Translations under genes and position numbers: made by a program
Notes under the pieces: model-generated
Databases searched by the model: none
The model's input: the letters and a program-made list of their open reading frames with translations, nothing else
What the model was told of the DNA's origin: nothing
Part shown: positions 5,053 through 62,764 of the stretch, piece by piece
Layout: each line of letters starts with the position of its first letter
Numbering within the stretch: the first letter of the stretch is position 1
NCBI GenBank assembly: GCA_049964955.1
Contig: JBMFWU010000005.1
Coordinates: 4,090-68,089, forward strand
Length of the DNA stretch: 64,000 nucleotides
Direction of reading: 5' to 3'
Source: Syntrophobacteraceae bacterium
GTDB lineage: Bacteria > Desulfobacterota > Syntrophobacteria > Syntrophobacterales > Syntrophobacteraceae

Positions 5053-5106
5053 TCAGTGATAAGTGATCAGAGAAAGCTTCTGCTCCTCACTGCTCACTGC
5101 TCACTA
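5039..5106. repeat. heptanucleotide array, family A, two opposed arms
   Basis: Plus arm AGTGAGC AGTGATC AGTGATA AGTGATC (5041-5068), then spacer, then mirror arm CTCACTGCTCACTGCTCACTA (5086-5106). Each arm is in the sense of the gene it follows and contains that gene's stop codon. Confidence 0.85.
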
Positions 5107-9334: not shown

Positions 9335-9373
9335 GAAATCAGTTCCTTTTGGGGTACGCCCGCGGGAAGCTCT

Positions 9374-11070: not shown

Positions 11071-12216
11071 TTAGTACCTGAAAATGGCCGCGGCATCCTT
11101 GCCGGGCATCTCGGGCGAACTCAGTCCATAGACAGTTGCGCCGCTAAGATAGGCGTTGGCAAAGGCCAGATCGAGCAGGTCCTCGTCTCCGGTTTGCCGC
11201 TCCGAATGGACTTCCACGTTGCCCGAGGCCGGGTCGTATTTGCCCCATTGCTGCGCGTCAGTGTCTACAAAGAGCGTATCGACTCTTCCCGAATCGGCGC
11301 CGGGCAAAATGTCTGCGATGCTCTCGGATGCGAGCGGGCCTCCGAGCAGTTCGCTGCACCGGTCGATTGCCTGTTCCTTTTCCCTGTTGAAATAGGCAGA
11401 TATGAGCCGCAGCCCTTTTTTGTGAAGTTCGAGCGAATCGAGTTCATCGGGGTTGCCCTCAATGAATTCGCCCGGGATGTTTCTGTAGATTTCCGCCTGC
11501 TTGAACATCGGAAAAAGATATTCCACGCCGGCAAAGACAAGAGGAATCTTCTCCTGTCTGAAGACTGGGTGCAGGCTGTCTTTCAAGATTTGAAACCACC
11601 GCCGGAGGCGATCTTTTTCCGATTCGGCGGCGCCGCCGTGCCCGTGGACCATTTGGGCCGTACCGGGATTGGAAGCCTGAGAACTCATCCGGAAAAGCGG
11701 AATCGATTCCTCTTCGGTGCCCAGCGCTTCCCGCATGCTCCTCGGCACGCCTTGGAGTTCGATTTCATTGGCGCCGAATTCCGTGCATTCGAAGAGTCGT
11801 AGCGATTTTTGACTGACGGCCAGGATAAAGAATTTCTTGTCGCCATGCAGCAGGGGGGCGAGCGGTTTCAAATAGAACTGCCGCCCGATGTGCAGTCGTT
11901 CGTAGAAACGGAGCGGGAGCTTGAAATATTTGAAAAAGTTTCTGGAGATGAACATGCTAAGGCCGTCGGTAAGACGGCGAGTGGTAGTGGCTTCCTTCAA
12001 AAAGTCCTGCGCGGGTTGAAGAAGCTCTCTGGCCTCGGAGGCGCGCACTCCTCCTGCCACGAGTTCTTTTTCGGCGCCTCTCAGAAGGTTATCCAGCCGA
12101 ATCGGGTCCTGCAGCGTGTCGCGTCCGGTCTTGTGCGTGGGCAGATAGAGTGACACGCAGGAGTCGCTCCTCTTGCGCATCAGTTCCCTGATTTCATCCT
12201 GCAAGATAAGATCCAT
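11071..12216 (-). CDS. hypothetical protein, possibly baeRF (bacterial eRF1-like) family
   Basis: 381 aa from ATG 12216 (GGAGG RBS). N-terminal VSLYLPTHKTGRDTLQDPIRLDNLLRGAEKEL and central HGHGG loop recall baeRF-type proteins. Assigned from memory only. Confidence 0.4.
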   Translation of the reverse strand: MDLILQDEIRELMRKRSDSCVSLYLPTHKTGRDTLQDPIRLDNLLRGAEKELVAGGVRASEARELLQPAQDFLKEATTTRRLTDGLSMFISRNFFKYFKLPLRFYERLHIGRQFYLKPLAPLLHGDKKFFILAVSQKSLRLFECTEFGANEIELQGVPRSMREALGTEEESIPLFRMSSQASNPGTAQMVHGHGGAAESEKDRLRRWFQILKDSLHPVFRQEKIPLVFAGVEYLFPMFKQAEIYRNIPGEFIEGNPDELDSLELHKKGLRLISAYFNREKEQAIDRCSELLGGPLASESIADILPGADSGRVDTLFVDTDAQQWGKYDPASGNVEVHSERQTGDEDLLDLAFANAYLSGATVYGLSSPEMPGKDAAAIFRY

Positions 12217-12322
12217 AGATTCCAGCCTCCTTGCATAAGGTATAGAGCCCCTGCTTACAAGATAAGCACTGGAAATCATCAGTCGATCAAACAGGAAATA
12301 TGGCCGGATCTGGGGAGGGTAT

Positions 12323-24462: not shown

Positions 24463-25902
24463 ATGAGGCAGTTGGATGTCGGCCGGCAGGGAGAAACTAA
24501 GGGTGCCAAAGATGCGGTGACGCAAAAGGCCAACGGAAAGGGCTTCAAAGGCGCAGTTGAGGATCATGAAGAAGCGATGAAGATGCGCGACCTGCTCAAG
24601 CGCTCGATCGCCGCCATGTGCGCTCTGGCCAGGGATGAAAACACGGCGGTGAATGCCAGGCTTCTCGATTTCAAAAATACCGTGCAAAGAGAATCGGCCG
24701 TCGGAGAGTTGGAAGAAAGCCTCCAGGCATTAAAAAGAGCGATACTTGAAAGTGACGATGCGGAGGGCGCGACGCCCAAGGCAGAAACTGCCGACCCGGC
24801 AAAAAATTCCGCTCCTGCCGGGGGCACAAAGGCTGTTCTCGATCAACTCCGCTCCATATTTCTCCACCTGGCCGGGGAATTCGATCGTGACTTCGGAGAA
24901 GAATATTCCGGGCGAGTGGCCATGCTCCGCGGGAAAATTCAAAAATGTGCCCGCATCGAAGATGTCGTGAGTCTCAAGCCGGACATCGCCACGCTCATCG
25001 AACTCTACAACCAGTCGATAGACGAGGAACGCACCCAGGTCACCGAGTTCATCGCGGAGATGAGCGAAGGCCTGCTGGAACTCGAGCGGCTCTATATCGG
25101 CACGATGAGCCAGACGGGGCAGAGCGAGAAGGAAAATAAGAATTTCAACCAGATCGTCGAAAACCACATGGAAGACATGAAAAAATCGGCGCAGCTCAGT
25201 ACGACGCTCGCCGACTTCAGGGAACTCGTCCTGACCCGGCTGGCATCGATCCGCAGCGCTCTGGAGGCAAAGCGCCGCTCGGAGGCGCTGCGCCATGAGA
25301 GTCTCCGAGAGGAGATGGAATCGCTCAATCAAAACCTGAGCCGGATGAAAAAGGAAGTCGATCAGGTCCATGAGAAGCGCAAGGCCCTGGAAAAGGAGGT
25401 ACTCATCGACTCGCTCACCGGAGTGGCGAACCGGCGGGCATTGAAGGAACGCCTCAAAAACGAAATGTACCGCTTCCAGAGATATAACCAGATCTTTTCC
25501 CTCGTTGTCTTCGATATCGACCGCTTTAAGTCCATAAACGATCAGCACGGCCACTGGGCTGGCGACAGATGCCTCAAGGAGATCGTAAAACGCATCGGCC
25601 CCATCCTGCGGGAAACCGATCTTATCGGACGGTGGGGAGGGGACGAGTTTGTGTTGATTTTTGCGGCCACTTGCCTGGAAAGCGCGGCTACCGTGGCGGA
25701 AAGACTGCGGAAATTGATCCAGAACACCCGTCTGGTTTACCACAAGCAAGAAATCAGCCTGAGCATAAGCATCGGGGTGGCCCAGGCCCTCGAGGGCGAC
25801 CAGTCCATCGAAAAGCTCTTCAACCGGGCCGATAAGGCCATGTACAAGTCAAAGAAGGCGGGAGGAAATAGTGTCAGTGTCAGTGAAAACAGTGAACAGT
25901 GA
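24463..25902 (+). CDS. diguanylate cyclase (GGDEF domain) with long coiled-coil N-terminal region
   Basis: DSLTGVANRR, FDIDRFKSINDQHGH, RWGGDEFVLIF. The last codons ...SVSVSENSEQ* are encoded by heptamer repeats. Confidence 0.9.
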   Translation: MRQLDVGRQGETKGAKDAVTQKANGKGFKGAVEDHEEAMKMRDLLKRSIAAMCALARDENTAVNARLLDFKNTVQRESAVGELEESLQALKRAILESDDAEGATPKAETADPAKNSAPAGGTKAVLDQLRSIFLHLAGEFDRDFGEEYSGRVAMLRGKIQKCARIEDVVSLKPDIATLIELYNQSIDEERTQVTEFIAEMSEGLLELERLYIGTMSQTGQSEKENKNFNQIVENHMEDMKKSAQLSTTLADFRELVLTRLASIRSALEAKRRSEALRHESLREEMESLNQNLSRMKKEVDQVHEKRKALEKEVLIDSLTGVANRRALKERLKNEMYRFQRYNQIFSLVVFDIDRFKSINDQHGHWAGDRCLKEIVKRIGPILRETDLIGRWGGDEFVLIFAATCLESAATVAERLRKLIQNTRLVYHKQEISLSISIGVAQALEGDQSIEKLFNRADKAMYKSKKAGGNSVSVSENSEQ

Positions 25903-41483: not shown

Positions 41484-43457
41484 TTGCTTTTGCGGCGCAG
41501 GGGTACGCTTTTTTTTCTTGTCATGGTTTTACTCGCCAGGGCGGCTTTTGCCGGTCCGTTGCATACGCACCGGACTGGAGCACAGCTCAAAGGATGGAGC
41601 ACGGCGGATATAAACGGGGTCGAATGGCTGATCGATCCGCAGGGAAAGCCTTTTTATTCGAAGGGCGTCGATATCGTCTCCGCCGGAATCAAAAGCGAAA
41701 AGAGCCTGGCCGGCCACGCATTTTTCTGGGCCAACTTCTACCCGACGCTCAATCGATGGCGCGCCGAAGTCGGAGAAAGACTCCGGAAATGGGGGTTCAA
41801 TACTCTCGGGGGCTGGTCGGACAGTTCCCCCAAAATCGGGCTGCCCCTCATGGTGGATCTGGAGCTGGGCCGCAACTCCCACTACCACTGGTTCGATCCC
41901 TTCGATCCGGAGATGGGAAAAATTACCATGGAGAAGGCCCGGGAACTCACCGCCCCGTATCGAAACCTGCCCCAACTCATAGGATACTTTAGCGACAATG
42001 AAGTCGGGTGGTGGAACTCGGCCCTTTTCATCTGGTATCTGAAGGCCCCGTGGGAAAACTACACCAAGCGGTTCTTGTGGCAAATGATCTACAATACCTA
42101 TGGAGGCGACTGGAAGGCCCTTCTTGCCGACTGGTCCCCGCAGAATGGGGCGAAGAGTTTCGAGGACCTTAAAAAGACCGGGGCCGCAATGAAATTGAGG
42201 CCGGGTGGAAACGGCATCCGGCTGGTCGACCGGTTTATGAGCGCGGTCGCCGGCCGCTACTACAAGCTGATGTACCGGGCGATCAAGGCTGCGGACCCAC
42301 GGGCGCTCGTGCTGGGAGACCGGCTGCCGCTCTATTATCACCAGGATGTCATACGGGCGATGGGAAACAATGTCGACGTGATTTCGACCAACTATAACGT
42401 CGATTCTCCCGACGGATGGGTTGCGCCCTACTACTTCGACGGGCTGCGAAAACTCAGCAAAAAGCCCGTTTTGATAAGCGAGTTCTTCTTTTCCTCCACG
42501 GAAAACCGGAGCGGCAATCTCAACGAGGATTTCGGCAGCCTCCATCCGAACCCTGGCCACCTCATGACCGTCCCCACCCAGGCAGAGCGGGTGTGGGGAG
42601 CGGGCCGGGCGGTGCTAAACTTTGCCCGGTTCCCGAACGTCGTTGGCGCCCAGTGGTTTCAATACTGCGACGAACCGCTCGGGGGACGCGACGACGGCGA
42701 AGACTACGACATGGGGCTTATCGACACATCCAACAGGCCCTACCGGAGGCTGACCGAACAGTTCCGCAAAATCAACCCGGTTCTTGATAAGACGCACGAA
42801 GAGAGCCGGGAGTTTACCGGGAAGCGCTCCGGAAAGCCCGGGCCGGTTGCTGTGCCTCAGGCCCATTACCGGATCAATGTCCAGGACCAATCGCTTGTCG
42901 AATGGGACAAGGAAAAAACGCTTCTTGCGGGCTTTACGGCCCCGTCGCCCCATGTGCCCTTTGCCGAGGTCCACCTTACCTGGAGGCCCGAGGGGTTCTA
43001 TCTTTTCAGCCTCTCCAATGTCTACGTAAACCCCGATTTCCTTGCCTACAGCGGACAATTTCCCAGGTCCGAAGCCTTTCAGCTCCATTTCACCGTGGAA
43101 CATGAGGGTGTGCGAAAGCACCTGGCCATATATCTCGTACCCCACAACAATCCTTCGGCCCCCGACGGGTTTGGGATCGCCCCGCAGCTTTTCCGGCTCG
43201 AAAACGCCGTCTGCGTGCAGAAGCTCGCAAACGCCGGCCACGTGCAAAGGATTGACGAATCCCTCCCCCACATCGCCATAGAGGCATTTTTTCCGGCCAA
43301 ATGGTTCGGGGTCGATGGATTGAAGGCCGGGATGCGTTTTCGGGTCAATATCGGAATGATCAGCTATTTTCGGGAGTTTACCATGTCGTGGGCCGGTATT
43401 CCCGAGGTGGGGGCGATCACCTCGCCCGCGGATTTCAGGGAGATCGTTTTGAAATAA
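41484..43457 (+). CDS. secreted protein, putative clan GH-A-like glycoside hydrolase
   Basis: TTG start gives the signal peptide MLLRRRGTLFFLVMVLLARAAFA. FNTLGGWSD, YFSDNEVGWW (NE acid/base-like) and LISEFFFS (nucleophile-like) suggest a TIM-barrel glycosidase. The C-terminal about 200 aa are unassigned. Confidence 0.45.
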   Translation: MLLRRRGTLFFLVMVLLARAAFAGPLHTHRTGAQLKGWSTADINGVEWLIDPQGKPFYSKGVDIVSAGIKSEKSLAGHAFFWANFYPTLNRWRAEVGERLRKWGFNTLGGWSDSSPKIGLPLMVDLELGRNSHYHWFDPFDPEMGKITMEKARELTAPYRNLPQLIGYFSDNEVGWWNSALFIWYLKAPWENYTKRFLWQMIYNTYGGDWKALLADWSPQNGAKSFEDLKKTGAAMKLRPGGNGIRLVDRFMSAVAGRYYKLMYRAIKAADPRALVLGDRLPLYYHQDVIRAMGNNVDVISTNYNVDSPDGWVAPYYFDGLRKLSKKPVLISEFFFSSTENRSGNLNEDFGSLHPNPGHLMTVPTQAERVWGAGRAVLNFARFPNVVGAQWFQYCDEPLGGRDDGEDYDMGLIDTSNRPYRRLTEQFRKINPVLDKTHEESREFTGKRSGKPGPVAVPQAHYRINVQDQSLVEWDKEKTLLAGFTAPSPHVPFAEVHLTWRPEGFYLFSLSNVYVNPDFLAYSGQFPRSEAFQLHFTVEHEGVRKHLAIYLVPHNNPSAPDGFGIAPQLFRLENAVCVQKLANAGHVQRIDESLPHIAIEAFFPAKWFGVDGLKAGMRFRVNIGMISYFREFTMSWAGIPEVGAITSPADFREIVLK

Positions 43458-52042: not shown

Positions 52043-52088
52043 AATTATTCATAGATGATGAAAAACTGCCGAAGAGAGGTTTTTTTCA

Positions 52089-52337
52089 GTGAAAGAACTC
52101 ATAAGCATCCGGGAAGCAAACCAGCATATTTCGCGCTATATCGATGCAATCCAGGATGGGGGCGAGATCGTCATCACCCGTCGCGGAAAGCCGGTTGCAA
52201 AACTGATCGGCATAAAGGAAGCGGATGGATTGAGCGAGGCTCAGAAGGGAGCGCGCAACAGGACCCTGGTTCGAATGCAAAAGGGGTACTCCCTGGGAGG
52301 GCATGTAGTTCAGAGGGATGTTTTGCATGAGAGGTAG
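52089..52337 (+). CDS. Phd/YefM-family antitoxin
   Basis: 82 aa, GTG start. KELISIREANQHISRYIDAIQDGGEIVITRRGKPVAKLI is the typical Phd/YefM N-terminal fold. Confidence 0.8.
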   Translation: MKELISIREANQHISRYIDAIQDGGEIVITRRGKPVAKLIGIKEADGLSEAQKGARNRTLVRMQKGYSLGGHVVQRDVLHER

Positions 52338-52788
52338 ACGGTTGAGTCTGGACACCAATATTTTGGTGTACGCAATGGACCGGGATGCGGGCAAACGTGA
52401 CGATCTCGCCTTGCAAATCGTCGACAGGGCCGTCGACTCGGACTGCGTTTTGACGTTGCAATCACTTTGTGAATTTTATGCTGCCGTGACCGGAAAAGGA
52501 AAAATGCCCCAAAAAGAAGCAGCAGCACAGATACACGACTGGCTGGAGTTATTTCCTGTGGCGTCTGCAACCCCCAAATCGTTTACGAAGGCGCTGAAGG
52601 CGGTGAAAGAACACGGCCTCTCTTTCTGGGACGCCATGATATGGGCGGTCGCGGCGGAAGCCGGGGTCGCGCTTCTGCTCTCCGAGGATTTCCAGCACAC
52701 CCGGGTGCTGGAAGGAGTTGAGTTCTACAATCCCTTTGGAATGGACGATCCCTTAGCCCGCGTATTCAATTCCCTGTTGCGTCCTTAG
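52327..52788 (+). CDS. vapC: PIN-domain toxin VapC
   Basis: LSLDTNILVYAMD, SFWDAMIWAVAAEAGVALLLSEDFQH. Start ATG 52327 (or 52318) overlaps the antitoxin end. Confidence 0.8.
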   Translation: MRGRRLSLDTNILVYAMDRDAGKRDDLALQIVDRAVDSDCVLTLQSLCEFYAAVTGKGKMPQKEAAAQIHDWLELFPVASATPKSFTKALKAVKEHGLSFWDAMIWAVAAEAGVALLLSEDFQHTRVLEGVEFYNPFGMDDPLARVFNSLLRP

Positions 52789-53016
52789 ATGCACTGCAGC
52801 AGTCAAGTTTTGCCATTGCGACGCTGACCTTCGAGGTATTGCAGCCTGGGGATGCCTCTTTTTCGCTGGCCAGGGGGAGGGCTTCCTTACCGGTTATGCT
52901 GGATCATTCCTCGTTGTGCCGCCGAATCTCCGAGATACTCCATTCGGCGGCAAGTTCGGTTGCGGGTTTGTTTGTGTTGCGAGTCGGCAAGCCGCCCCGG
53001 TTTTATCCCTGCTGCT

Positions 53017-54456
53017 TTATTTCGCGCATGCGAAGTCCTTTTTCCTCCAAATGGATTTGCCCCGTTTGCTTCCGCTTTCATATTCTGCCAGAGGCGCAGC
53101 CGTAGCAGGTAAGGTTCGGGTCAACCAGCCTGATCGCGCGGCGCTCATCAAACCCCAGAAAGAAATCCATGACAGGGCGAAAACCGAAAAGAACGAGTAG
53201 GGAATGGCCCAGCGCCAGCCAAACCAGGAGCGGTAGCGGAGCTGATAGACTGCTCCCGGTACAATCGAGCCGATCAGGCAGCCGCCCCCCAGAGCCAGCA
53301 GGGTGGGCGCCGGATTCATAACCAGCTGAGCCAACAGACCCACTTTGAGCGCCTCCCCCACAGTTAGCCGGAACAGTTGCATTCCGCTTATAAATCGAAT
53401 CCATCCGCCCCCGCTGTCTCCCTTCCGGAAACGTTTAAACACGAAGCATGCCATGACCAGACTCTCACGGACATTGCTCCTGGCCCAGCGCAGCATCATT
53501 TTGCGCAGCCCCTGAAAAGCAACGGGAATCTTGGTAAGCACAACCGCTTCCCTCTGGTAGACGACCCGGTAGCCGGTTTTGAGCACAAGATTGGTCAAGG
53601 CCCGGTCTTCCCCTATCGTTGCAGGCGTTCCAAGGAAGGCCTGTTTTACCCAGCCCGTTAAATGCTCCCTTATTATCGATACCCTGTAGGCGGACAGCGC
53701 GCCGGGGGTGCAGAATACACCCCCGTATACGGACTGGCCCGCACGAATGAAATCGAAGCCGGACGTAAAGAACACTTCCATCATCTTGGGAATGGGCCCC
53801 TCTTCGCGGTTTAGAACGCGTACGTTTCCTGCCACGGCCCCCACTTTGGGATTTACGGCAAAGGGGCTTACGAGGTGAAGCAGGGTGTCCGGCAACACCT
53901 CTGAATCCGAGTCGATGGTCACCCACACTTCGCTGCGGGCGTGTTGAAACCCGGCCATGAGGGCTTGACGTTTGCCCGAGTTTTTAGGCTGGCGGACCAG
54001 TTTGAGCCGTGCCGGATACTCCTGCCGGGCCTTGAGCATCCACTGCCAGGTGTCATCGTTCGAGCCGTCGTCAACGGAGATAACCTGCATCTTCTCGGCG
54101 GGATAATTGCTGTTCATGACCGAGCGCACCGTGGGCAGAATCTGCCGGCCCTCGTTATAGGCCGGAATCACGATCGTTACCGTGGGAAGCTCGTTTTCGG
54201 CCACCGGAGCGCAGGCCTTGTAACGGTATGCCATCCAGATTCTCCAGGCGAGTACGCCAAGGGCGAAGATAGCCAGCGCAGAGCCGGGCCTGATGCCAAA
54301 CAGGAGGGGGTGAGGGTGCTTTAGCACCTGAAGAAAGTGGACCTTGCCCGACAACCTCGAACAAAGGAGTGTAGCTGCGAGCAGCAGGTCGACCAGTAGA
54401 ATCCATAGGTACAGGTGGTCAATTTTATTTTTGAGGATGAACAATCTCTTTTTCAT
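53017..54456 (-). CDS. membrane-embedded family-2 glycosyltransferase (processive synthase type, PgaC/NodC/HasA-like)
   Basis: 479 aa. N- and C-terminal TM segments. TIVIPAYNEG, SVDDGSNDDT, TIDSDSEV (DxD), GEDRALTN, LRKMMLRWARSN (QxxRW-like). GAGG RBS before ATG 54456. Confidence 0.8.
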   Translation of the reverse strand: MKKRLFILKNKIDHLYLWILLVDLLLAATLLCSRLSGKVHFLQVLKHPHPLLFGIRPGSALAIFALGVLAWRIWMAYRYKACAPVAENELPTVTIVIPAYNEGRQILPTVRSVMNSNYPAEKMQVISVDDGSNDDTWQWMLKARQEYPARLKLVRQPKNSGKRQALMAGFQHARSEVWVTIDSDSEVLPDTLLHLVSPFAVNPKVGAVAGNVRVLNREEGPIPKMMEVFFTSGFDFIRAGQSVYGGVFCTPGALSAYRVSIIREHLTGWVKQAFLGTPATIGEDRALTNLVLKTGYRVVYQREAVVLTKIPVAFQGLRKMMLRWARSNVRESLVMACFVFKRFRKGDSGGGWIRFISGMQLFRLTVGEALKVGLLAQLVMNPAPTLLALGGGCLIGSIVPGAVYQLRYRSWFGWRWAIPYSFFSVFALSWISFWGLMSAARSGWLTRTLPATAAPLAEYESGSKRGKSIWRKKDFACAK

Positions 54457-54567
54457 GGAATTACCTCATCAAGGCCTTAATCGGTGCGGTGCAGTCTGCC
54501 AAAAGTTCACTCTCCCCTCTTTGTCATGCTTCGGGGGGACCAGACCCAGTCCTTGGACTAGCCCATA

Positions 54568-54583
54568 AGCAAGTGTCGTTCCA
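54568..54583 (-). promoter_or_regulatory. candidate sigma-54 promoter for the GT2 gene
   Basis: Minus strand reads TGGAAC-GACAC-TTGCT. GG and GC are at the canonical -24/-12 spacing, with one mismatch to TGGCAC-N5-TTGCW. About 110 nt upstream of ATG 54456. Confidence 0.5.
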
Positions 54584-54657
54584 TGCGCAAATGGAATCTC
54601 TTCGGTCCTCCCGGCCCTTCAATCCAACCCCGAAATGAGTTTTAGCCTGGCCGGCAG

Positions 54658-54773
54658 CGACAAGAAATGTCGAACGCTCACGCGGAGAGCTTTAAAATTT
54701 CCTCGTGATTACGGCACAATACGCATTCGACAGATTTTCCCGCCCCTCCCGGCATCCTCGACATTTCTGTCGA
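54658..54773. promoter_or_regulatory. TCGACA/TGTCGA inverted repeats, candidate enhancer (UAS) sites
   Basis: CGACA-agaaa-TGTCG (54658-54672), half-site TCGACA (54727-54732) and TCGACA-tttc-TGTCGA (54758-54773). They lie 75-190 bp upstream of the sigma-54-like promoter. Confidence 0.4.
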
Positions 54774-54973
54774 AAAGAGGTAGGAATGAGTTGGGTTTGT
54801 ACGAGCTATGCTCCTGAATGAACCGGATGCATCTACTGATGCCGATATAATCCATCTGGTATGAACATTGCTGCTGAAACGGCCAGTGGAAAAAGGACTC
54901 GGTGAATGGTTGTATGCTTTTGTGAGGCTCAGGCATCGATGCAACCCTGCTCTGCGAGGTGGAGTGGGAAGCC

Positions 54974-56722
54974 ATGACGAGTACAATGAACCGTTTTCTG
55001 CGAAACTTCAAAGGGGAAAGTCGCCACCACTTCATACAACCTTTGGCGGTCGCGCTGGTCTTTCTGCTTTTTGCCCTGCTTTTTTTCGGCATGGCCATGA
55101 TTGACCTCGGGCGGTTCGAGGATCTGCTCGCGAGCGCCCTGAGGGATAAGGCCCTCTATATCGCAGAAGTCATCGAGAAAGCTTCCCAGGTCAAATACAG
55201 CCGCCTCATGGGGGACACAAGGAAGTATGGGGAACTGTCGGCAACCACGGCTGTTGACGATCAATCCTTTTACCTCCAGCAATCCCTGGTCGAGGCACTG
55301 ATCGACGTGGCCCGGCATGTCGATCTGGATGCAGAACATGGGGAGGGGGCCGAGAGTAAAGCTCAGGAACTGGTCTCCTCAGAGCACCTCCATGCCATCG
55401 GTTTTTTCGACGAGCATGGCGGACTCGTATTTCGGAGTGCTCCGTTTCCGCCTTCTATAAGTAAACGAATGAAAGGCATGATGAAAAGCAAGGAGGAAAC
55501 GGCGGTCCACGTATTTCGTAAAACAAAGGAGCAGGGCTTGCCGAGCTTTATCGCGGTTCGCGAACAGAGTGGGAAGGGCGCTGTCGTCCTGGTCCTCAAC
55601 CGGCAGGACTTGAAATACTGGGGACGCAGGATTGCGACGCAGGCGGTCATGGAAGAGATGCAATGGGGCACGGGGGTCGCATACATATCCGTGGAGGATG
55701 AAGCAGGCAAGATTATCGCCAGGTTCGGACATATCCCGCGTGAGAAAATCCAGGGTTACCAGATTGCGGCAGATGCAACCGGGGAACCGGAAGACCTCTA
55801 CGGGCTGCTTGTAAAGATGGGAAAGACGAAGTCCCTGGAACTTTCCTTTCTCTTACGGTGGGACCAAAAGGCCATAGGGACTGTCCATGTCGGGCTGAAA
55901 ACCGACCAGACAAACCAGCTTCTGATGGAGAACCGAAAGCGCATCTTCCTCTGGACGGGCCTGATGATGCTCATCGGCCTTTTCGCAATGGGGGCGCTCT
56001 ACCGGACCCAAAACCGGCATATCGCCAGAATCCAGGCAATGCAGGAGCGATTACACCAGGCCGAGCGGCTCTCCTCTCTCGGGCAACTCGGGGCGGGAGT
56101 GGCCCACGAGATCCGAAACCCTCTGAACGCCATCAGCATGGCGGCCCAGAGGCTTCAGTCCGGGTGCACAAAGGAGAAGTTGGAGCGAATTTCCCATATC
56201 ATTCGAGACGAGATAAAGCGACTCAACCAGATCGTAGAGGATTTCCTGAGCCTTTCGAGAACCAACCGCTTCGAGTTCCGGACAATATCCATCACTGGCC
56301 TGCTGGATAGGATTTTTTTTCTTCTAAGTGAAGAAGCCGGGCCAAAAGGCATCCATGTCGCGAAGGAGTGGACGAACCGATCGGTTCGGGTCCTCATGGA
56401 TACGGGAAAAATGGAGCAGGCCCTCCTCAATATTATCCGCAACGCCATGGAATCCATTTCCGGTGAGGGGCGCATCACGATATCGTGCGACACTCCAGGA
56501 AAGAACCGGGTCAGCATCAAGATCAAAGATACCGGCAAGGGTATTCCCGCAGGGGAGGAGAAACGGATTTTCGACCCGTTCTATACGAGCAAGGAAAATG
56601 GCGTTGGCCTGGGCCTTGCCATCGCTCATGAGATTGTTTTGGCCCATGGTGGAGAAATCCGCGTGGAGAGTGAAGTCGGGAAGGGATCAACCTTCGAGGT
56701 CCTGCTTCCCCTGGAGCTGTGA
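54974..56722 (+). CDS. sensor histidine kinase (two TM, about 270-aa periplasmic domain; NtrB/AtoS-like transmitter)
   Basis: GAGVAHEIRNPLNAI (H box), NIIRNAMES (N), IKDTGKGIP (G1), GVGLGLAIAHEIV (G2). Start set at ATG 54974; the track starts at GTG 54959. Confidence 0.85.
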   Translation: MTSTMNRFLRNFKGESRHHFIQPLAVALVFLLFALLFFGMAMIDLGRFEDLLASALRDKALYIAEVIEKASQVKYSRLMGDTRKYGELSATTAVDDQSFYLQQSLVEALIDVARHVDLDAEHGEGAESKAQELVSSEHLHAIGFFDEHGGLVFRSAPFPPSISKRMKGMMKSKEETAVHVFRKTKEQGLPSFIAVREQSGKGAVVLVLNRQDLKYWGRRIATQAVMEEMQWGTGVAYISVEDEAGKIIARFGHIPREKIQGYQIAADATGEPEDLYGLLVKMGKTKSLELSFLLRWDQKAIGTVHVGLKTDQTNQLLMENRKRIFLWTGLMMLIGLFAMGALYRTQNRHIARIQAMQERLHQAERLSSLGQLGAGVAHEIRNPLNAISMAAQRLQSGCTKEKLERISHIIRDEIKRLNQIVEDFLSLSRTNRFEFRTISITGLLDRIFFLLSEEAGPKGIHVAKEWTNRSVRVLMDTGKMEQALLNIIRNAMESISGEGRITISCDTPGKNRVSIKIKDTGKGIPAGEEKRIFDPFYTSKENGVGLGLAIAHEIVLAHGGEIRVESEVGKGSTFEVLLPLEL

Positions 56723-56756
56723 GGCGGATTCGTGAGAAAAGGAAAAGCGCAGAGTC

Positions 56757-58127
56757 ATGCAAGAGCTCGATATCCTGATCGCCGAAGATGAACCGTTTCA
56801 GAGGGAAATGCTTTGCGATTTCCTCATCGAGGAGGGGCACCGGGTGGCGGGAGCCGGGAATGGCGAAGATGCGCTGAGGCTTCTCGAAGGCAGCTATTTT
56901 GACCTGTTGCTGCTTGATTTCAAGATGCCGGGGCTTACCGGCCTCGAATTACTGAAGGAAGCCAAACGACTCAATCCCTCAATCGATGCCGTAATCGTAA
57001 CGGCTTTCGGCACCATTGAAACCGCCGTCGAGGCAATGAAGGCGGGAGCAAGCGATTATATCGCAAAGCCCATCGATTTAAATCAACTCTCGATCCTGAT
57101 CAACCGTATTGCGCAACACCGAACGCTGCTTCGAGAAAACGAGATCCTCAAACAAGAGCTTAGGGAAAAAGGCGTATCCTCGGCGACCATCCACCACGAG
57201 AGTCCCAAGATGGCCGAACTGATAAACCTTGCCGGAAGGATAGCGCCAAGCCAGGCAACCGTTTTGATCCAGGGGGAGACCGGAGTCGGCAAGGAACTTT
57301 TCGCCAGGCTGATCCATCATCTAAGCCCCCGAGCCGAGCGGCCGCTGATTACGGTCAACTGTGCCGCCATCCCCGAAACACTGCTTGAAAGCGAACTGTT
57401 CGGGCACGAAAAAGGGGCCTTCACGGGCGCCACACAGCGACGAATCGGTCGATTCGAACAGGCCGCCGGAGGCACGCTCTTCCTCGACGAGATAGGCGAA
57501 CTCACCCTGCCCGTTCAGGTGAAGCTGCTCCGTTTCGCTCAGGAGCGGGAGTTTCAAAGGATCGGCGGGGAGAGGACCATCAAAGCCGATGTGCGGATCA
57601 TCAGCGCCACCCACCAGGACCTTGAATCCAAGGTGAAGGATGGCACGTTTCGCGAGGATCTTTTCTACCGTGTAAACGTCGTTACCATGAAAATCCCGCC
57701 GCTCAGGGAGCGCCGTGAGGATATCCCCGTTCTGATCGATCACTTCGTGAACCATTTCGCCAGAGAAAACCGTAAGGAAATCAAAGGAGTGAGCAGGGAA
57801 GCGCGTGACCTGCTAATCAAGTACCATTATCCGGGAAATGTGAGAGAATTGGAAAACATCATCGAGAGGGCCATAGTGATCGCTCGCGGTGCTGTCTTGT
57901 CCGTCGAAGATTTGCCGTTTCAGGAAGCCTTGGCTTCAAACGCCATGTGTTCCAATGACGCCCGGGCTCCGGAAGGAACCCTTCAGCACACGCTCGAATC
58001 GACGGAACTCCAGATGATAAAGGATGCGATGGAAAGGGCCTCCGGTAACCAGAGTCAGGCTGCCAAACTGCTGGGATTGAACGAGAGGATGCTCCGATAT
58101 AAACTGAAAAAATATGGATTGAAGTGA
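56757..58127 (+). CDS. sigma-54-dependent response regulator (NtrC family enhancer-binding protein)
   Basis: Receiver ([12 protein letters not shown]). AAA+ domain with [14 protein letters not shown] (HEKGAFTGA) and ESELFGHE. C-terminal Fis-type HTH ([24 protein letters not shown]). Confidence 0.92.
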
Positions 58128-58167
58128 ATATCGCCCCGTGCTCCCTCTGGAAGAGAGGTTTTTCCCA

Positions 58168-58389
58168 GTGAAAGAACTCATAAGCATTCGGGAAGCAAAC
58201 CAGTACATCTCGCGCTATATCGATGCAATCCAGGATGGAGGCGAGATCGTCATCACCTGTCGCGGAAAACCTGTCGCAAAATTGATCGTAAAGGAAGCGA
58301 GTGGATTGACCAAGGCTCAGAAGGGCGCGCGCAACAGGACCTTGGTTCGAATGCAAAAGGGGTATTCACTGGGAGGGCATGAGAGATAG
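58168..58389 (+). CDS. Phd/YefM-family antitoxin, second copy
   Basis: Aligns with 52089..52337 (KELISIREANQYISRYIDAIQDGGEIVITCRGKPVAKLI). It lacks 8 codons (VVQRDVLH) present near the C-terminus of copy 1. It begins 41 nt after the regulator stop. Confidence 0.7.
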   Translation: MKELISIREANQYISRYIDAIQDGGEIVITCRGKPVAKLIVKEASGLTKAQKGARNRTLVRMQKGYSLGGHER

Positions 58390-58649
58390 ACGTTTGAATC
58401 TGGACACCCCAAAAGGAAGCTGAAGCACAGATAAACGACTGGCTGGAGTTATTTCCTGTGGCGTCTGCAACTCCCAAATCGTTGGCGAAGGCGCTTAAGG
58501 CGGTAAGAGAACACGGCCTTTCGTTCTGGGGCGCCCTTCTGCTCTCCGAGGATTTCCAGCACACCCGGGTGCTGGAAGGAGAGTTCTGCAACCCCTTTGA
58601 GATGGATGATCCCTTGGATCGCGTATTCAAGGCCCTGAGCGAAGACTGA
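58379..58649 (+). pseudogene. decayed PIN/VapC toxin (second copy)
   Basis: ATG 58379 gives MRDRRLNLDTPKGS*. Relative to copy 1, about 150 nt are missing after CTGGACACC (including the DTNIL catalytic region) and 36 nt are missing (DAMIWAVAAEAG...). The remaining blocks align with 52509-52770. Confidence 0.75.
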
Positions 58650-58789
58650 TCTTTCCGGTCTCACCCGGCCAGGAAGTGTCACCACGATGGGACGGGTGTC
58701 CCCCAAATATGACATCTCGCTTCCGATCGGATTTCATTTCATCCCCTGCCGAACTTCATTTTTCGCCATATTTGTCACAATTTATTCTC

Positions 58790-58805
58790 AGGCACATATC
58801 TTGCT
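58790..58805 (+). promoter_or_regulatory. candidate sigma-54 promoter for the secreted-protein/PEP-CTERM operon
   Basis: AGGCAC-ATATC-TTGCT, with GG/GC at canonical spacing and one mismatch at the first base only. About 240 nt upstream of ATG 59044. Confidence 0.55.
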
Positions 58806-59043
58806 GAGTATCAAGATACCTGAAAATACAGATGCGATTCTCGGGTTAACCTCCGTAAGCCATTGCACCATCGGCAAAAAGCAGGGAATCGGCGAACTCT
58901 TTATCTCAAATCACCCTTTCCGGTTGCGATACTTCCAACGGCTGCAAACGATAACATCAAGACCGATCCCTTCTCATTGATAATGCCGGAGTTCGAGCAC
59001 CAAATCCAATCAACCTTTTTGTGGCTCATCAAGGAGGACGATT

Positions 59044-61002
59044 ATGAGAGTGGTCAACTTTGGAATATTCATTTCGGCACTGGGCGCGACGCTCCTGGCA
59101 GCGGTCCCGACCCTGGCGACCACTGCTCCGCCGCCTGTGATCAAGGGGTGGCAAGTGGTAATAGACAACGGCTATAACATTCCAACCGATGCATGCAATC
59201 CGGAAAATCTAGCCGCCTGCCGGAAATTCAACAGCTACAACCCGCCTTCGGTCAATGCAGGCAAATTGGTGGTAATCCGCGCCAGAAGCAAGGGCGCGGA
59301 AGGCGGGGGCCAACAACCGGTCCACGGGATATACACTCGCGACATGGCCGTGGCGGAAAGTCCTGTCGTAAGGATCCTGGATCGCTCCAGTCCGGTGCCG
59401 CAGCCAAACAATCTCGACGCCACCTTCATCGAACCACCGGCTTTTCCACGCATTGACATGTACTCCGGTACCATTGCCACCCGCGGAAACCATCAGCCTG
59501 TGTGGGTTGAAAATGGTGACAGGTTCGGTACTACGGGCATTTATGCCAATCCGGTTGGTACACTGATCACCGGAGCAAGCAAGCTTGGTATAGTCCAATC
59601 TTTTTCTTTTTTTCAAGTTCCAGATGCCATTCCTCTTACGCCTTTCGACGTGTTTCCGGGAGCGCCCGCGGTAACGAAGGGGACGACTATAGTGTTCAAG
59701 GGAAATTACACGGAGAATTCGATCGCCAAGACCGGGGTATACTACAGAAACCTCTCTAATGCCTCCGCCGGCGGGGCCGCCCCTGTCGAACTGATTGCAA
59801 ACACCAATAACTTGATCCCCGGCACGACGAAAATTAAGTTTGGCTCCCTCGCGCCTCCCAGCGCAGCGGGCGACAAGGCGGTGTTTGTCGGCCTTGACAA
59901 CGAAGACAACCCCCAACACGGCGGGATTTACCTGGTCACGTTATCTCCCGAACCACAGCTCAAGACAGTCATAACGATAGGTTCCAATGTCCCCGGTGAA
60001 AGCGGCGCCACATTTAACAAGTTTGGCGAGGGGCTCTCCTTTGATGGTCGTTTTGTGGCCTTTTGGGGCGCATGGGGAAACGAGACCAGGTCCTTGAATC
60101 TGCAATGCCCGGCGGAAGGAAACAAAGACCGCGTAGCGTACTGCAAGAAACTCTGTGCTGCTGATTCGGCCAATTGTATTCGTACGGTCCCGGTACATCA
60201 GGGCATCTTCGTCCACGACCTGGTGACCGGGATCACTTACCCGGTCGCAAAGACGGGTGAGGAGTTTGGGGATTTCAGCGACTTTTTGTACTGGAACTTT
60301 TCCGGCCATGTCCCGGGGAGCACCATGGAGGATGACGGCGAACCGGCCAGATGGCGGTCTTCGGCGTTTGTAGCCGTTTCGGGGCTGGTAGACGGCAGCC
60401 TGGCGGACAAAAACTTCCATGCAGCTTTCAAGGCCAGGAAAGTCCAAGCGGTTGAAGGTGCCCCGGTCGACGGCATCTATCTCAGTGAAGGGCCGGTGCA
60501 GTCGCCTCTCCTTACCTTGGCCGAGACAGGCATGGATGGATCGCTCCTTGATCCTGCCCTGAATGGACAGAATTTGCCGGTCACGGAGATGGGCATCGAG
60601 CGCGACGGCTTTCGCGGCAATGCGCTGGCGATAAATGTGACCATGGGCAGCGAAGAAACCGGTTGGGGCGGGGTTTATCTGACAGAAGTCTGGATTAACC
60701 TCTCATCCCAGATCAGTTCAAGAAGCACAGGCTTTCTATATAGCCGTGTGTCCAGGCAGTTTACGGGTAGACTCACGATCACCAACAACGGCGCTGATAT
60801 CAACGGCAAGGTCGTCGTGGTCCTAAACGGCCTTACCGAAGGCGTCACGCTGGTCAATGCGACCGGCCAGTACAACGGCTCGCCCCTGATCACGGTATCG
60901 ACAAGCGGGCTAGCCGCAGGAGCGTCGATCACCGTTCCGCTGCAGTTCACTGATCCAGCCAACGCCAAAATTAACTTCACGACACTGGTACTCCAACCAT
61001 AG
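59044..61002 (+). CDS. secreted repeat protein of unknown function
   Basis: 652 aa. AGGAGG RBS. Signal peptide MRVVNFGIFISALGATLLAAVPTLATTA. Recurring strand motif G-x-x-[IV]-[AV]-F-x-G (KGTTIVFKG, GDKAVFVG, DGRFVAFWG), suggestive of a beta-propeller-like repeat. Ig-like C-terminal tail (TGRLTITNNGADINGKVVVVLNGL). Confidence 0.7.
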   Translation: MRVVNFGIFISALGATLLAAVPTLATTAPPPVIKGWQVVIDNGYNIPTDACNPENLAACRKFNSYNPPSVNAGKLVVIRARSKGAEGGGQQPVHGIYTRDMAVAESPVVRILDRSSPVPQPNNLDATFIEPPAFPRIDMYSGTIATRGNHQPVWVENGDRFGTTGIYANPVGTLITGASKLGIVQSFSFFQVPDAIPLTPFDVFPGAPAVTKGTTIVFKGNYTENSIAKTGVYYRNLSNASAGGAAPVELIANTNNLIPGTTKIKFGSLAPPSAAGDKAVFVGLDNEDNPQHGGIYLVTLSPEPQLKTVITIGSNVPGESGATFNKFGEGLSFDGRFVAFWGAWGNETRSLNLQCPAEGNKDRVAYCKKLCAADSANCIRTVPVHQGIFVHDLVTGITYPVAKTGEEFGDFSDFLYWNFSGHVPGSTMEDDGEPARWRSSAFVAVSGLVDGSLADKNFHAAFKARKVQAVEGAPVDGIYLSEGPVQSPLLTLAETGMDGSLLDPALNGQNLPVTEMGIERDGFRGNALAINVTMGSEETGWGGVYLTEVWINLSSQISSRSTGFLYSRVSRQFTGRLTITNNGADINGKVVVVLNGLTEGVTLVNATGQYNGSPLITVSTSGLAAGASITVPLQFTDPANAKINFTTLVLQP

Positions 61003-61012
61003 GAGGAGGAAA

Positions 61013-61642
61013 ATGAAATTCATAAAAGTGAAGCTTTTTGTTATAGCTTTTGTCTTGCTGGTCGCTGGTTCGGCATTCGCGTCGTCCATCTATGACATAT
61101 CGGTGAACACCCACTCCCTTTTTGGTCAGACCGGATATCTCTACCTACAGTACGTCCCCGTTAACGCTGCAAGTTCCATCGTGACGGTTTCAGGGTTCAC
61201 AACGGATGGATCGTTGGCTATTACAAACGATACTGCTTACGTTGTTGATGGCAGCGCTGTCACCGGTACTTTGCCAAACCCTGTCACTTTCGAAAACACC
61301 AATTTCATCAACGATTACAATCACAAAATCACCTTCGGTAACTATTTCGCTTTCCAACTTTCATTTAGTAACCTCGCCTCCGGGGGGGAAAGCGCTGGAA
61401 GCAGCACTTTTTCCCTCGGATTGTTCGCCAACGCAGAGGGTTCCCTTCCTTCGCTTCGTGATACCGTAGATACAGGTGGAACGCTGGCTTGGATTGACCT
61501 GGGGAACGACGGGACTACAGATACCCGGGTCCTGGTGCCCGAAGTTACAGTATCAGCGGTCCCCGAACCCTGCACGGTTTTGCTGCTCAGTTTGGCATTG
61601 GTCGGCATAGCCGTGTTTAGAAAGTGGCAAATCGGGGTTTGA
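61013..61642 (+). CDS. PEP-CTERM-anchored protein of unknown function
   Basis: 209 aa. Signal peptide MKFIKVKLFVIAFVLLVAGSAFA. C-terminus VPEP-CTVLLLSLALVGIAVF-RK, i.e. PEP motif plus TM helix plus basic residues. Starts 10 nt after the upstream stop, with a GGAGGAGG RBS. Confidence 0.75.
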   Translation: MKFIKVKLFVIAFVLLVAGSAFASSIYDISVNTHSLFGQTGYLYLQYVPVNAASSIVTVSGFTTDGSLAITNDTAYVVDGSAVTGTLPNPVTFENTNFINDYNHKITFGNYFAFQLSFSNLASGGESAGSSTFSLGLFANAEGSLPSLRDTVDTGGTLAWIDLGNDGTTDTRVLVPEVTVSAVPEPCTVLLLSLALVGIAVFRKWQIGV

Positions 61643-61653
61643 AGTGAATGTTC

Positions 61654-61678
61654 GTCCTCCCGGCTTCGCCGGGAGGAC
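61654..61678 (+). terminator. strong hairpin after the PEP-CTERM gene
   Basis: GTCCTCCCGG-cttcg-CCGGGAGGAC, a perfect 10-bp stem. No clear U-tract follows. Confidence 0.5.
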
Positions 61679-61753: not shown

Positions 61754-61893
61754 CCGGATGGGAGCGGCGCAGCATTCCCTACGGGGTGACGATCGGGAAA
61801 TTGTTGTCCGGAGAGTCCAGGAGCGAGAAAAGAGCGGCGTGCTTCCGGGGGCTACCTTCGATGGAAAAGTCTTCGGAGCAGACCGGTTCGTTC
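61754..61893 (-). repeat. duplicated copy of the alkyl-sulfatase 3' end (about 140 bp)
   Basis: Aligns with 62627-62764. The minus-strand translation ...EDFSIEGSPRKHAALFSLLDSPDNNFPIVTP* mirrors the sulfatase C-terminus ...EDFSIEGDPRKLAALFSLFDAPDNNFPIVTP*. Confidence 0.85.
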
Positions 61894-61896
61894 GAC

Positions 61897-62295
61897 TCAG
61901 GCTTCCCAGTGCACTGTTTCCAAGTCCGTCTGAGAAAAGTCGCCGCCCTTGAAAAGAAGGGGCTCGCCGGCACATTTCGCAAGAGAATAGGAACAGCAGT
62001 CGCCAATATTGAGCCCTGCGGGGTGTCGGCCTTTACCGTATTTTCTCCAGGCGGCCCTTGCAAGTTCCATGTGTTCAACCGTTAGGGGAACGATTTCGAT
62101 TTTCGCCCGGTCTAAGAGAATGTCGAGTTCACCGCCCCCCAAGTTGCCTTTCTTTGCTTCTATCACAATAGCTGTCTCTAATGCAGTGAAGGCACTGACG
62201 ATCCTTCTGGGATCCCGGGCTATTGCCAGAGCAAAAAGTTCAGCTTCAGGCTCCCCAAGAAGAATTGCGATCAGGGCGGAACTATCAATAATCAT
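61897..62295 (-). CDS. vapC: PIN-domain toxin VapC (FitB-like)
   Basis: 132 aa. MIIDSSALIAILLGEPEA, ALETAIV, NIGDCCSYSLAKCAGEPLLFKGGDFSQTDL. Confidence 0.9.
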   Translation of the reverse strand: MIIDSSALIAILLGEPEAELFALAIARDPRRIVSAFTALETAIVIEAKKGNLGGGELDILLDRAKIEIVPLTVEHMELARAAWRKYGKGRHPAGLNIGDCCSYSLAKCAGEPLLFKGGDFSQTDLETVHWEA

Positions 62296-62549
62296 TCCTT
62301 CGGGACCCCCGTATCATCGTAGCCAAGGATCTCGTCCGCCCCTCGCCGGTCTATTTCCGGCAAAGACCTGCACCGAATGGATATCTTCATTATCTCATCG
62401 GCAATTTCTGTGGTCGAGCGCCGTCCCTTAAGGCGGATGAGTTGCTCCTCCAATGCCTGTATGATCGCTTCGGTGATGTTTACCCCACTTTCGGCAGCAA
62501 CCTCGCGGGCAAGTTTTTCCGCTTTCGGATTCCTGATACTGAGCGCCAT
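62292..62549 (-). CDS. vapB: VapB-type antitoxin (Rv0623/PSK-like transcription factor family)
   Basis: 85 aa. MALSIRNPKAEKLAREVAAESGVNITEAIIQALEEQL. 4-nt overlap with vapC. Confidence 0.85.
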   Translation of the reverse strand: MALSIRNPKAEKLAREVAAESGVNITEAIIQALEEQLIRLKGRRSTTEIADEIMKISIRCRSLPEIDRRGADEILGYDDTGVPKE

Positions 62550-62626: not shown

Positions 62627-62764
62627 CCGGATGGGCGTCGGCGCCGTCCCTACGGGGTGACGATCGGGAAATTGTTGTCCGGGGCGTCGAAGAGCGAGAA
62701 AAGAGCGGCGAGCTTCCGGGGGTCTCCTTCTATGGAAAAATCTTCGGGGCCGGCCGGTTCGTTC
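62627..62764 (-). repeat. original copy of the duplicated segment (sulfatase last about 38 codons plus 23 nt of 3' flank)
   Basis: Direct repeat of 61754-61893 flanking the vapBC cassette. Confidence 0.85.

Follow-up and report, generated by a model that had tools for sequence, protein, structure and literature searches.

Do five neighbouring genes at positions 53017-61678 of a 64,000-nucleotide (nt) stretch of DNA from a Syntrophobacteraceae bacterium (assembly GCA_049964955.1, contig JBMFWU010000005.1, positions 4,090 to 68,089 of the forward strand; hereafter the window) constitute one regulon that couples a polysaccharide synthase to two secreted proteins? A compact sigma-54-controlled regulon of this kind was proposed in a first-pass annotation, comprising a glycosyltransferase family 2 (GT2) synthase transcribed leftward and, transcribed rightward, a histidine kinase (HK), an NtrC-type enhancer-binding protein (EBP) and two secreted proteins, the second of which ends in a PEP-CTERM sorting tail. 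Inspection of the translations located all five open reading frames (ORFs) where that annotation had placed them:

53017-54456, minus strand: GT2 synthase ORF of 479 residues, assigned from the ORF and its translation
54959-56722, plus strand: HK ORF; the ATG at 54974, conserved in relatives in the intergenic alignment, is the probable start
56757-58127, plus strand: EBP ORF, an NtrC-type sigma-54 activator and response regulator
59044-61002, plus strand: 652-residue protein ORF with signal peptide, beta-propeller and C-terminal domain (CTD)
61013-61642, plus strand: 209-residue PEP-CTERM protein ORF, NF038129 family

We read the region, with slightly better than even confidence, as two adjacent but separable units, namely a sigma-54-switched synthase trio (unit A; GT2, HK and EBP) and a two-gene surface-display cassette (unit B; the 652- and 209-residue proteins). 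The part of the earlier proposal that concerned control of the synthase was supported, while the membership of the secreted pair in the same regulon was not. Unit A is a known kind of system and unit B is a variation on a known surface-anchoring logic.

The divergent arrangement of GT2 and HK-EBP recurs at three homologous loci, L001, L087 and L089, with different outer flanks, which consist of an RND efflux system and a LemA/Hint locus in L087 and of a P-type ATPase in L089. The identities of the encoded proteins to those of the window are:

L001 trio: GT2 97%, HK 95%, EBP 97%
L087 trio: GT2 88%, HK 84%, EBP 96%
L089 trio: GT2 85%, HK 77%, EBP 92% (the EBP gene ends at the contig edge)

The propeller gene is absent from the trio loci L087 and L089. 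Conversely, GT2 was present at none of 79 other propeller loci examined, an NtrC-type EBP lies within 10 kb of the propeller gene at approximately four of these 79, and most neighbours are unrelated. The five-gene order, put forward as a neighbourhood to be sought in relatives, was found only in the window and in L001, which share 96% DNA identity over the GT2-to-EBP segment and are therefore too close to be informative.

The regulatory sequences of unit A are concentrated between GT2 and HK. Sigma-54 sites were taken as GG and GC dinucleotides 10 nt apart in a TGGCAC-N5-TTGCW context. Near-consensus -24/-12 elements had been reported before both outward units, and they are indeed present, although the sites number three and not two. 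The first two of these, together with putative upstream activating sequences (UAS), are as follows:

54568-54583, minus strand: GT2 -24/-12 site TGGAACGACACTTGCT, one mismatch to consensus, ~100 nt from the ATG
54658-54672: UAS1 palindrome CGACAAGAAATGTCG, CGACA-N5-TGTCG, in a near-invariant alignment block and present in L087 and L089
54727-54732: half-site TCGACA, conserved in the intergenic alignment
54758-54773: UAS2 palindrome TCGACATTTCTGTCGA, TCGACA-N4-TGTCGA, in a conserved alignment block
54857-54872, plus strand: HK-EBP operon -24/-12 site TGGTATGAACATTGCT, identical in 5/5 aligned intergenic regions

In the same five-sequence alignment, which includes the window, the GT2 site is kept in L001, L087, L089 and L090. 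Palindromes of the form CGACA-N3-7-TGTCG occur three times in the 64-kb window, two of them within the 500-nt GT2-HK intergenic region. Measured from the inferred start of GT2, UAS1 lies at ~107 nt and UAS2 at ~207 nt; measured from that of HK, the distances are ~218 and ~117 nt, respectively. Spacings such as these, roughly 110 and 210 nt upstream of each inferred transcription start, are typical of NtrC-family activators. As judged from sequence and spacing, both palindromes are probable activator-binding sites. That the adjacent pair controls the synthase through sigma-54, as proposed, is supported by the retention of the trio in L001, L087 and L089 and by the conservation of both promoters and both palindromes. 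In such a circuit, an envelope signal would cause the kinase to phosphorylate the activator, which would then bind the palindromes and open both divergent promoters, thereby turning on the synthase and boosting its own operon.

A GT2 of 78% identity at locus L081, where no kinase or regulator adjoins, is preceded by a sigma-54-like site (TGGAACAACATTTGCT) 91 nt upstream; sigma-54 dependence thus seems older than the present adjacency of the three genes. The palindromes upstream of the L081 GT2 differ from those of the window, and the locus suggests that the same synthase family may be served there by another activator. Region 7640-7760 of L081 contains a GC-rich palindrome, CCGGACACC-GGGTGTCCGG, upstream of GT2 and ~200 nt from the sigma-54-like site.

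The third sigma-54 site precedes unit B:

58790-58805, plus strand: candidate sigma-54 site AGGCACATATCTTGCT, one mismatch, 238 nt before the gene of the 652-residue protein

By weighted score, the two intergenic regions contain, in the correct orientation, three of the five highest-ranking sites of the window, and the site at 58790 shares the top score. It could nevertheless be a chance match, in which case transcription of unit B would depend on read-through or on a promoter of some other, unrecognised type, an explanation to which we give serious weight although somewhat less than an even chance. Across the whole window, 21 matches at this stringency were seen against 24.5 expected by chance, and the 238 nt that separate the site from the start codon exceed 221 nt, the largest distance reported between a sigma-54 site and a PEP-CTERM gene (PMC1569441). 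The site is not conserved in L002. Sigma-54 sites were not enriched upstream of 66 propeller homologues, for which forward and reverse scores were alike, and no good sites were identified upstream of 15 cargo genes of other cassettes containing an NF038129 gene. This absence of enrichment led us to drop sigma-54 control as a family trait of propeller or NF038129 cassettes. A chance match is countered by the position of the site, which is non-coding, correctly oriented and joint best in score, and by its L001 counterpart (CGGTACATATCTTGCT), which keeps the invariant GG and GC, although the region is closely related overall and this conservation is thus uninformative. The CGACA-N-TGTCG palindrome of unit A was not found upstream of the gene of the 652-residue protein.

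The components of unit A display well-defined domain architectures. In HK, two hydrophobic segments flank a loop of ~275 residues, in agreement with the two-transmembrane kinase and periplasmic domain originally described, and Pfam identified HisKA (60.3 bits) and HATPase_c (94.2 bits) together with a weak sCache_3_2 match. The GAFTGA motif reported for EBP was found in its translation, and Pfam confirmed an NtrC-type architecture, comprising Response_reg (96.8 bits), Sigma54_activat (242.5 bits), HTH_8 (52.8 bits) and AAA_lid_14. The best NCBIfam models describe HK as AtoS/ZraS-like, with a score of 239 against an equivalog cutoff of 646, while EBP scored 513 against the AtoC cutoff of 714, also below equivalog level. 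The pair resembles AtoS/AtoC and ZraS/ZraR in domain architecture, in these top-scoring models, and in the location of the activator gene beside its presumed target with palindromes upstream. It differs from them in the sensor domain, in the binding motif and in the target, which here is a polysaccharide synthase.

PrsK/PrsR, the sigma-54 two-component pair associated with PEP-CTERM/exosortase systems, was also considered. The kinase was already thought not to be of the PrsK type, and its score of 98.3 bits against a cutoff of 300 for TIGR02916, with the catalytic core alone aligned, bears this out. EBP likewise failed the PrsR model (TIGR02915; 407.8 bits against 502.6), with the AtoC, ZraR and NtrC models scoring higher. 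With both models below cutoff, the pair was not classed as PrsK/PrsR. The locus shares with PEP-CTERM/PrsK/PrsR systems a genuine PEP-CTERM tail on a member of a named family, NF038129, a sigma-54 two-component pair with a polysaccharide synthase nearby, and a -24/-12-like site before the cassette. In contrast, its two-component pair fails both models, the window contains no exosortase, and the upstream motif 1 of those systems is missing. That motif, a 17-mer with TTTACA at its end, was described by Haft et al. (2006, PMC1569441) as preceding the -24/-12 element of the PEP-CTERM gene by ~63 nt; by reading, TTTACA was not seen in 58640-58790, upstream of the gene of the 652-residue protein.

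In the GT2 translation, the DDGS, DSDS, GEDR and LRW motifs noted previously are legible. Pfam returned Glycos_transf_2 (108 bits) and Chitin_synth_2 (61.9 bits; cutoff 27), the closest PDB sequences are hyaluronan synthases (E 1.6e-28), and many homologues bear the JGI label "hyaluronan synthase". The NCBIfam equivalog cutoffs of NodC (152 against 550) and PgaC (140 against 422) were both missed. DDGS, DSDS and GEDR are invariant across the subfamily (120 homologues), while the canonical Q(Q/R)xRW processivity motif is replaced by R[RK]M[LM]LRW in 120/120 relatives examined and reads RKMMLRW in the window. From its sequence, GT2 is a membrane-integrated synthase of the hyaluronan-synthase/NodC/chitin-synthase-like kind, a member at superfamily rather than equivalog level. 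A UDP-glucose 6-dehydrogenase gene adjoins the GT2 relatives in L081 and L084, which suggests that the polymer probably contains glucuronic acid. This neighbourhood recalls hasAB, and the single membrane chain carrying DDGS, DSDS, GEDR and xRW is shared with Class I hyaluronan synthase (HasA/HasB), NodC and PgaC. The differences are R[RK]M[LM]LRW in the window subfamily and the absence of the dehydrogenase from this window, where Pfam scans detected none among 30 other ORFs.

The features of the locus that were described at first pass hold, but two were overlooked: a decayed toxin-antitoxin copy in the 916-nt gap between EBP and the gene of the 652-residue protein, treated below, and the division of that protein into propeller and CTD. 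The parts of unit B are as follows:

59044-60693, plus strand: signal peptide and beta-propeller, residues 1-550, from the AlphaFold2 (AF2) model and the homologue family
60694-60999, plus strand: CTD, a ~100-residue beta-sandwich, residues 551-652, from homology to metallophosphoesterase C-termini and the model
61013-61642, plus strand: NF038129 PEP-CTERM protein with signal peptide, ~155-residue beta-sandwich and VPEP-transmembrane-RK tail (tail ~61556-61639)

The Sec signal peptides attributed to both secreted proteins are evident in their translations. The 209-residue protein matches NF038129 with 99.8 bits (cutoff 65) over residues 11-203, and an identical NCBI protein is named "NF038129 family PEP-CTERM protein". 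Its designation as a PEP-CTERM protein is confirmed by TIGR02595 (19.6 against a cutoff of 16) and by the tail VPEPCTVLLLSLALVGIAVFRK, legible in the translation, while Pfam PF07589 was narrowly missed (19.1 against 20.7). The AF2 model has a pLDDT of 86.8. The tight coupling to the upstream gene was also verified, with a gap of 10 nt and a Shine-Dalgarno sequence (GGAGGAGG) that overlaps the upstream stop codon; from this sequence arrangement, the 209-residue protein gene is read as translationally coupled to that of the 652-residue protein. Most PEP-CTERM genes constitute single-gene operons (PMC1569441), whereas that of the window comes second in a translationally coupled pair.

Metallophosphoesterases encoded just upstream of NF038129 genes end in a domain with 45-57% identity to the window CTD, the remainder of those proteins being unrelated. 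These secreted enzymes are of the purple-acid-phosphatase type, their NF038129 genes begin 9-15 nt downstream, and such cassettes were found in Thermodesulfovibrionales, on one 6.2-Mb contig and on many metagenome contigs. A CTD-ending ORF lies directly upstream on the same strand at approximately 24 of the 27 testable NF038129 loci, in most with a gap of 9-15 nt; the cargo at these ~24 loci is a metallophosphoesterase, and at none is it a propeller. In the reverse direction, the CTD-bearing propeller genes examined are each followed, after 9-13 nt, by an NF038129 gene:

L013, downstream gene: NF038129, 82.2 bits (cutoff 65)
L120, downstream gene: NF038129, 83.6 bits (cutoff 65)
L121, downstream gene: NF038129, 66.1 bits (cutoff 65)
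L007, downstream gene: frameshifted NF038129 copy, no score

Propellers that lack the CTD were not followed by an NF038129 gene at the loci checked. A search with tblastn and a loose tail pattern for PEP-CTERM ORFs after propeller genes found credible ones only at L001 and L013, among 76 testable loci of the genome scan. This genetic coupling of CTD and NF038129 extends over many genomes.

The window pair resembles the pairs of the phosphatase cassettes, while Acidobacterial pairs are 27-32% (CTD) and 23-32% (NF038129) identical to it, and similarity to the window CTD co-varies with similarity to the window NF038129 (Spearman 0.85, 21 cassettes). The co-variation and the divergent Acidobacterial pairs indicate that tag and partner move as a pair and became attached to the propeller on at least two occasions. 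At L113 (3192-7427), one NF038129 gene (5001-5612) is located between two CTD-bearing metallophosphoesterase genes, one of them with a Tat-type signal, an arrangement which suggests that one NF038129 anchor may serve several cargo proteins.

The CTD occurs in 1395 representative clusters and occupies the extreme C-terminus in ~140 of the 150 listed. N-terminal to it, 73 Pfam families were found among 78 proteins, including Metallophos, NHL, FG-GAP, Kelch, lectin-like and pectate-lyase-like domains. The CTD closes the protein in each cassette and each CTD-bearing propeller examined, and no PEP-CTERM tail lies beyond it. The domain has no NCBIfam match and no Pfam model above threshold; the DUF11/CARDB-like Ig domain (PF01345) stayed below its gathering score when the CTD was scanned by itself (22.9 against 24.6 bits) and matched 3/78 CTD-bearing proteins at E up to 1e-4.

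The propeller belongs to a much larger family. The 652-residue protein is 100% identical to the NCBI "hypothetical protein ACP5SH_02770", and its confident AF2 model (pLDDT 88.4) places a small beta-sandwich after a beta-propeller. The top PDB folds are seven-bladed integrin alpha propellers (TM-score 0.37-0.40); with respect to function, structural comparison gave only generic matches (integrin alpha, sialidases, lyases), at TM-scores of at most 0.40, and a profile of 90 homologues revealed no solved relative in the PDB. More than 2000 homologues were found, with relatives in 324 species genomes; 119 other listed homologues are 49-71% identical, with one exception at 87%, and the contigs of the listed homologues derive from Gamma-, Beta- and Deltaproteobacteria, Acidobacteriota, Planctomycetota, Verrucomicrobiota, Chloroflexota and others. 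This exported family is strongly conserved: homologues listed or aligned share about 50-66% identity with the query across phyla, two nearer relatives at 73-87% excepted. Most are ~570 residues long and lack the CTD, and none among the matches listed carries a functional name. The DUF7453/NxxGxxAF repeat (PF24251, TIGR05002) does not match the window propeller. Homologue P0026 reaches 27.4 against 26.2 for PF24251 over 54 residues and 17.3 against 50 for TIGR05002, which would indicate at best a distant resemblance of the repeat strands.

At other loci, the propeller combines with several kinds of C-terminal module. Extensions of 54-376 residues that are neither CTD nor dockerin were observed on the propellers of L043, L049, L058, L070, L072 and L073, and no PEP-CTERM gene follows these genes. 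At 19/80 loci (L001-L080; e.g. L067 8244-9749), the gene that directly precedes the propeller gene, in the same orientation, encodes a secreted protein of ~500 residues without a Pfam family. Smaller clusters of other secreted proteins take the same slot, and in the Acidobacterial L120 and L121 the upstream gene bears the Solibacter C-terminal domain TIGR03437.

The comparison of the window with L001 provides a view of what the CTD and its partner may do. The L001 propeller is 87% identical up to residue 549 and then continues into Dockerin_1 (24.2 against a cutoff of 22.9), and the next ORF is cohesin-like (Cohesin 22.9 against 24.1, E 1e-4). The tail of this cohesin-like protein passes TIGR02595 and is 78% identical to the window tail. 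DNA homology between window and L001 halts at 60689, the propeller/CTD junction, and restarts at 61562, in the PEP-CTERM tail. Neither of the two secreted proteins of the window gave a Dockerin or Cohesin match in Pfam. From these sequences, the slot is read as one that accepts two alternatives, a dockerin with a cohesin-like PEP-CTERM protein or the CTD with an NF038129 PEP-CTERM protein. Three further features of the window bear on the history of this slot:

52089-52788, plus strand: intact Phd/PIN toxin-antitoxin module, Phd 52089-52337 and PIN 52318-52788 (PhdYeFM_antitox 54.3 bits, PIN 45.2 bits)
52776-52862, plus strand: 87-nt relic of a cohesin-like PEP-CTERM gene, encoding VASLDALQQSSFAIATLTFEVLQPGDASF, 85% nucleotide identity to L001 12211-12297
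58138-58640, plus strand: decayed Phd/PIN copy with an internally deleted PIN, at the junction of the units (Phd remnant 34.2 bits)

Positions 12211-12297 of L001 fall within the cohesin-like PEP-CTERM ORF, and the window relic stands directly after the intact PIN gene. This relic suggests that the window lineage probably once carried the dockerin/cohesin version. The two Phd/PIN copies are direct repeats, the decayed copy being ~90% identical to 52071-52776. The intact one is located between a major facilitator superfamily (MFS) gene and GT2, and the decayed one between EBP and the propeller gene, while L001 has one copy only, an intact one (8510-9353) that stands between EBP and the propeller gene, and lacks the left-hand copy. 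These positions imply that the module was recently duplicated or translocated in the lineage of the window.

Cohesin and dockerin form a dedicated tethering pair. Because the same slot holds such a pair in L001, we infer that NF038129 acts as an exosortase-sorted anchor for the CTD. An exosortase would anchor the NF038129 protein at the cell, its beta-sandwich would bind the CTD non-covalently, and the bound CTD would keep the propeller on the cell surface or within the polysaccharide matrix in cohesin-dockerin fashion. The placement of the sorting tail fits a tether, as it is always on the partner and absent from the cargo in the cassettes examined; so do the translational coupling and the L113 arrangement, in which the NF038129 gene stands between two CTD cargo genes. 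Like cohesin-dockerin systems, the proposed tether would place a small C-terminal module on an enzyme and the partner module on a separately encoded anchored protein, and the L001 slot itself holds Dockerin_1 with a cohesin-like PEP-CTERM protein. The two differ in that the window CTD, a beta-sandwich with sub-threshold similarity to DUF11, lacks EF-hand repeats, and in that anchoring here would proceed via PEP-CTERM/exosortase and not via SLH domains or sortase. More broadly, we suggest tentatively, and short of an even chance, that CTD and small NF038129-type PEP-CTERM proteins represent a widespread, previously undescribed non-covalent surface-display system of exosortase-bearing Gram-negatives, analogous to dockerin and cohesin, in which many kinds of secreted enzyme would dock onto an adaptor anchored by exosortase. 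A literature search in one library returned nothing joining PEP-CTERM with cohesin and dockerin, the term NF038129 was not found, and the sole paper matched there for PEP-CTERM with metallophosphoesterase concerns, by its title and abstract, Dehalococcoides viruses.

The coupling of CTD and NF038129 could also be functional without being a tether, the partner serving in export or maturation or as an inhibitor, the CTD acting as a type IX-like secretion signal, or both binding the same polysaccharide independently. A C-terminal beta-sandwich on highly diverse cargo is indeed reminiscent of known secretion-signal domains, tight translational coupling would suit a chaperone or fixed-ratio partner, and no structural similarity of NF038129 to cohesin was found. 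The CTD of type IX secretion is likewise a beta-sandwich of ~80-100 residues, with which numerous secreted proteins, otherwise unrelated, come to their extreme C-terminal end. However, the type IX CTD family was absent from Pfam scans at E up to 0.05, the window CTD pairs with a small PEP-CTERM protein, and type IX CTDs occur in Bacteroidota while the window-type CTD occurs in Desulfobacterota, Nitrospirota and Acidobacteriota. A non-tethering role is also countered by L001, where dockerin and a cohesin-like PEP-CTERM protein, modules that purely tether, replace the pair, and by the consistent location of the membrane/sorting tail on the partner. We consider such a role unlikely.

The original proposal that all five genes form one sigma-54 regulon, with EBP driving the synthase leftward and the secreted pair rightward, appears improbable, as the near-consensus, joint top-scoring site 238 nt before unit B, its GG and GC retained in L001, the neighbourhood of all five genes there and the frequent sigma-54 dependence of Proteobacterial PEP-CTERM genes (PMC1569441) are set against an adjacency confined to the window and one close relative, trios without propellers and propellers without GT2, the lack of a CGACA-N-TGTCG box, an intervening toxin-antitoxin module and the absence of sigma-54 enrichment at homologous loci.

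Several observations weigh against the two-unit reading and the tether that it includes. The footprint of unit A derives from four close relatives, in an alignment with a mean column identity of 78%. A high-scoring -24/-12 site does precede unit B, and control by EBP via an unrecognised site is conceivable; the terminator-like hairpin after EBP (58144-58158) is weak, and hairpins of this kind are as frequent in the region as chance would predict. In unit B, the L001 Cohesin score falls just under the Pfam threshold, and the NF038129 model matched no PDB fold at E < 0.01 and no solved cohesin; the candidate identity of NF038129 as a cohesin by fold was dismissed on the same result. The co-variation of CTD and NF038129 is also expected from the common ancestry of neighbouring genes, and the CTD family, as sampled, is much larger than NF038129, so that many CTD proteins may be partnerless. 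Finally, an exosortase was not found by Pfam among 30 other ORFs of the 64-kb window; the previous statement that the window contains no exosortase, Wzx/Wzy or export gene was upheld by these scans.

Pfam scans of these 30 ORFs found housekeeping genes. Among the remaining features of the window are a bacterial archaeo-eukaryotic release-factor-like protein (baeRF families 7 and 3; 11071-12279, minus strand), a GGDEF diguanylate cyclase (24463-25902, plus strand) and a 657-residue ORF with a hydrophobic N-terminus and no family match (41484-43457, plus strand). Downstream of unit B, a VapBC-type module (PIN and Rv0623-like antitoxin; 61897-62549, minus strand) is located between two copies of the 3' end of an alkyl-sulfatase gene (61764-61829 and 62635-62700), in an arrangement that looks like an insertion plus target duplication. 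ORF 61779-62078 (minus strand) is a remnant of the alkyl-sulfatase C-terminus.

The synthase switch is in itself ordinary, yet its clean and compact arrangement of promoters and UAS lends itself to experiments with syntrophic Desulfobacterota. PEP-CTERM proteins occur in many environmental bacteria and, to our knowledge, almost none has an assigned function. The near-obligate pairing of NF038129 with the CTD, together with the dockerin/cohesin replacement in L001, makes it a testable proposition that small PEP-CTERM proteins anchor tagged enzymes. If true, a domain present on more than 1000 representative protein clusters would gain an annotation, and a class of small PEP-CTERM proteins would gain a function, with a tag-anchor pair that moves between cargo genes as a unit. 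Such a pair would constitute a portable display module for Gram-negative bacteria and would account for the retention of phosphatases and other enzymes on the cell surface or within the matrix.

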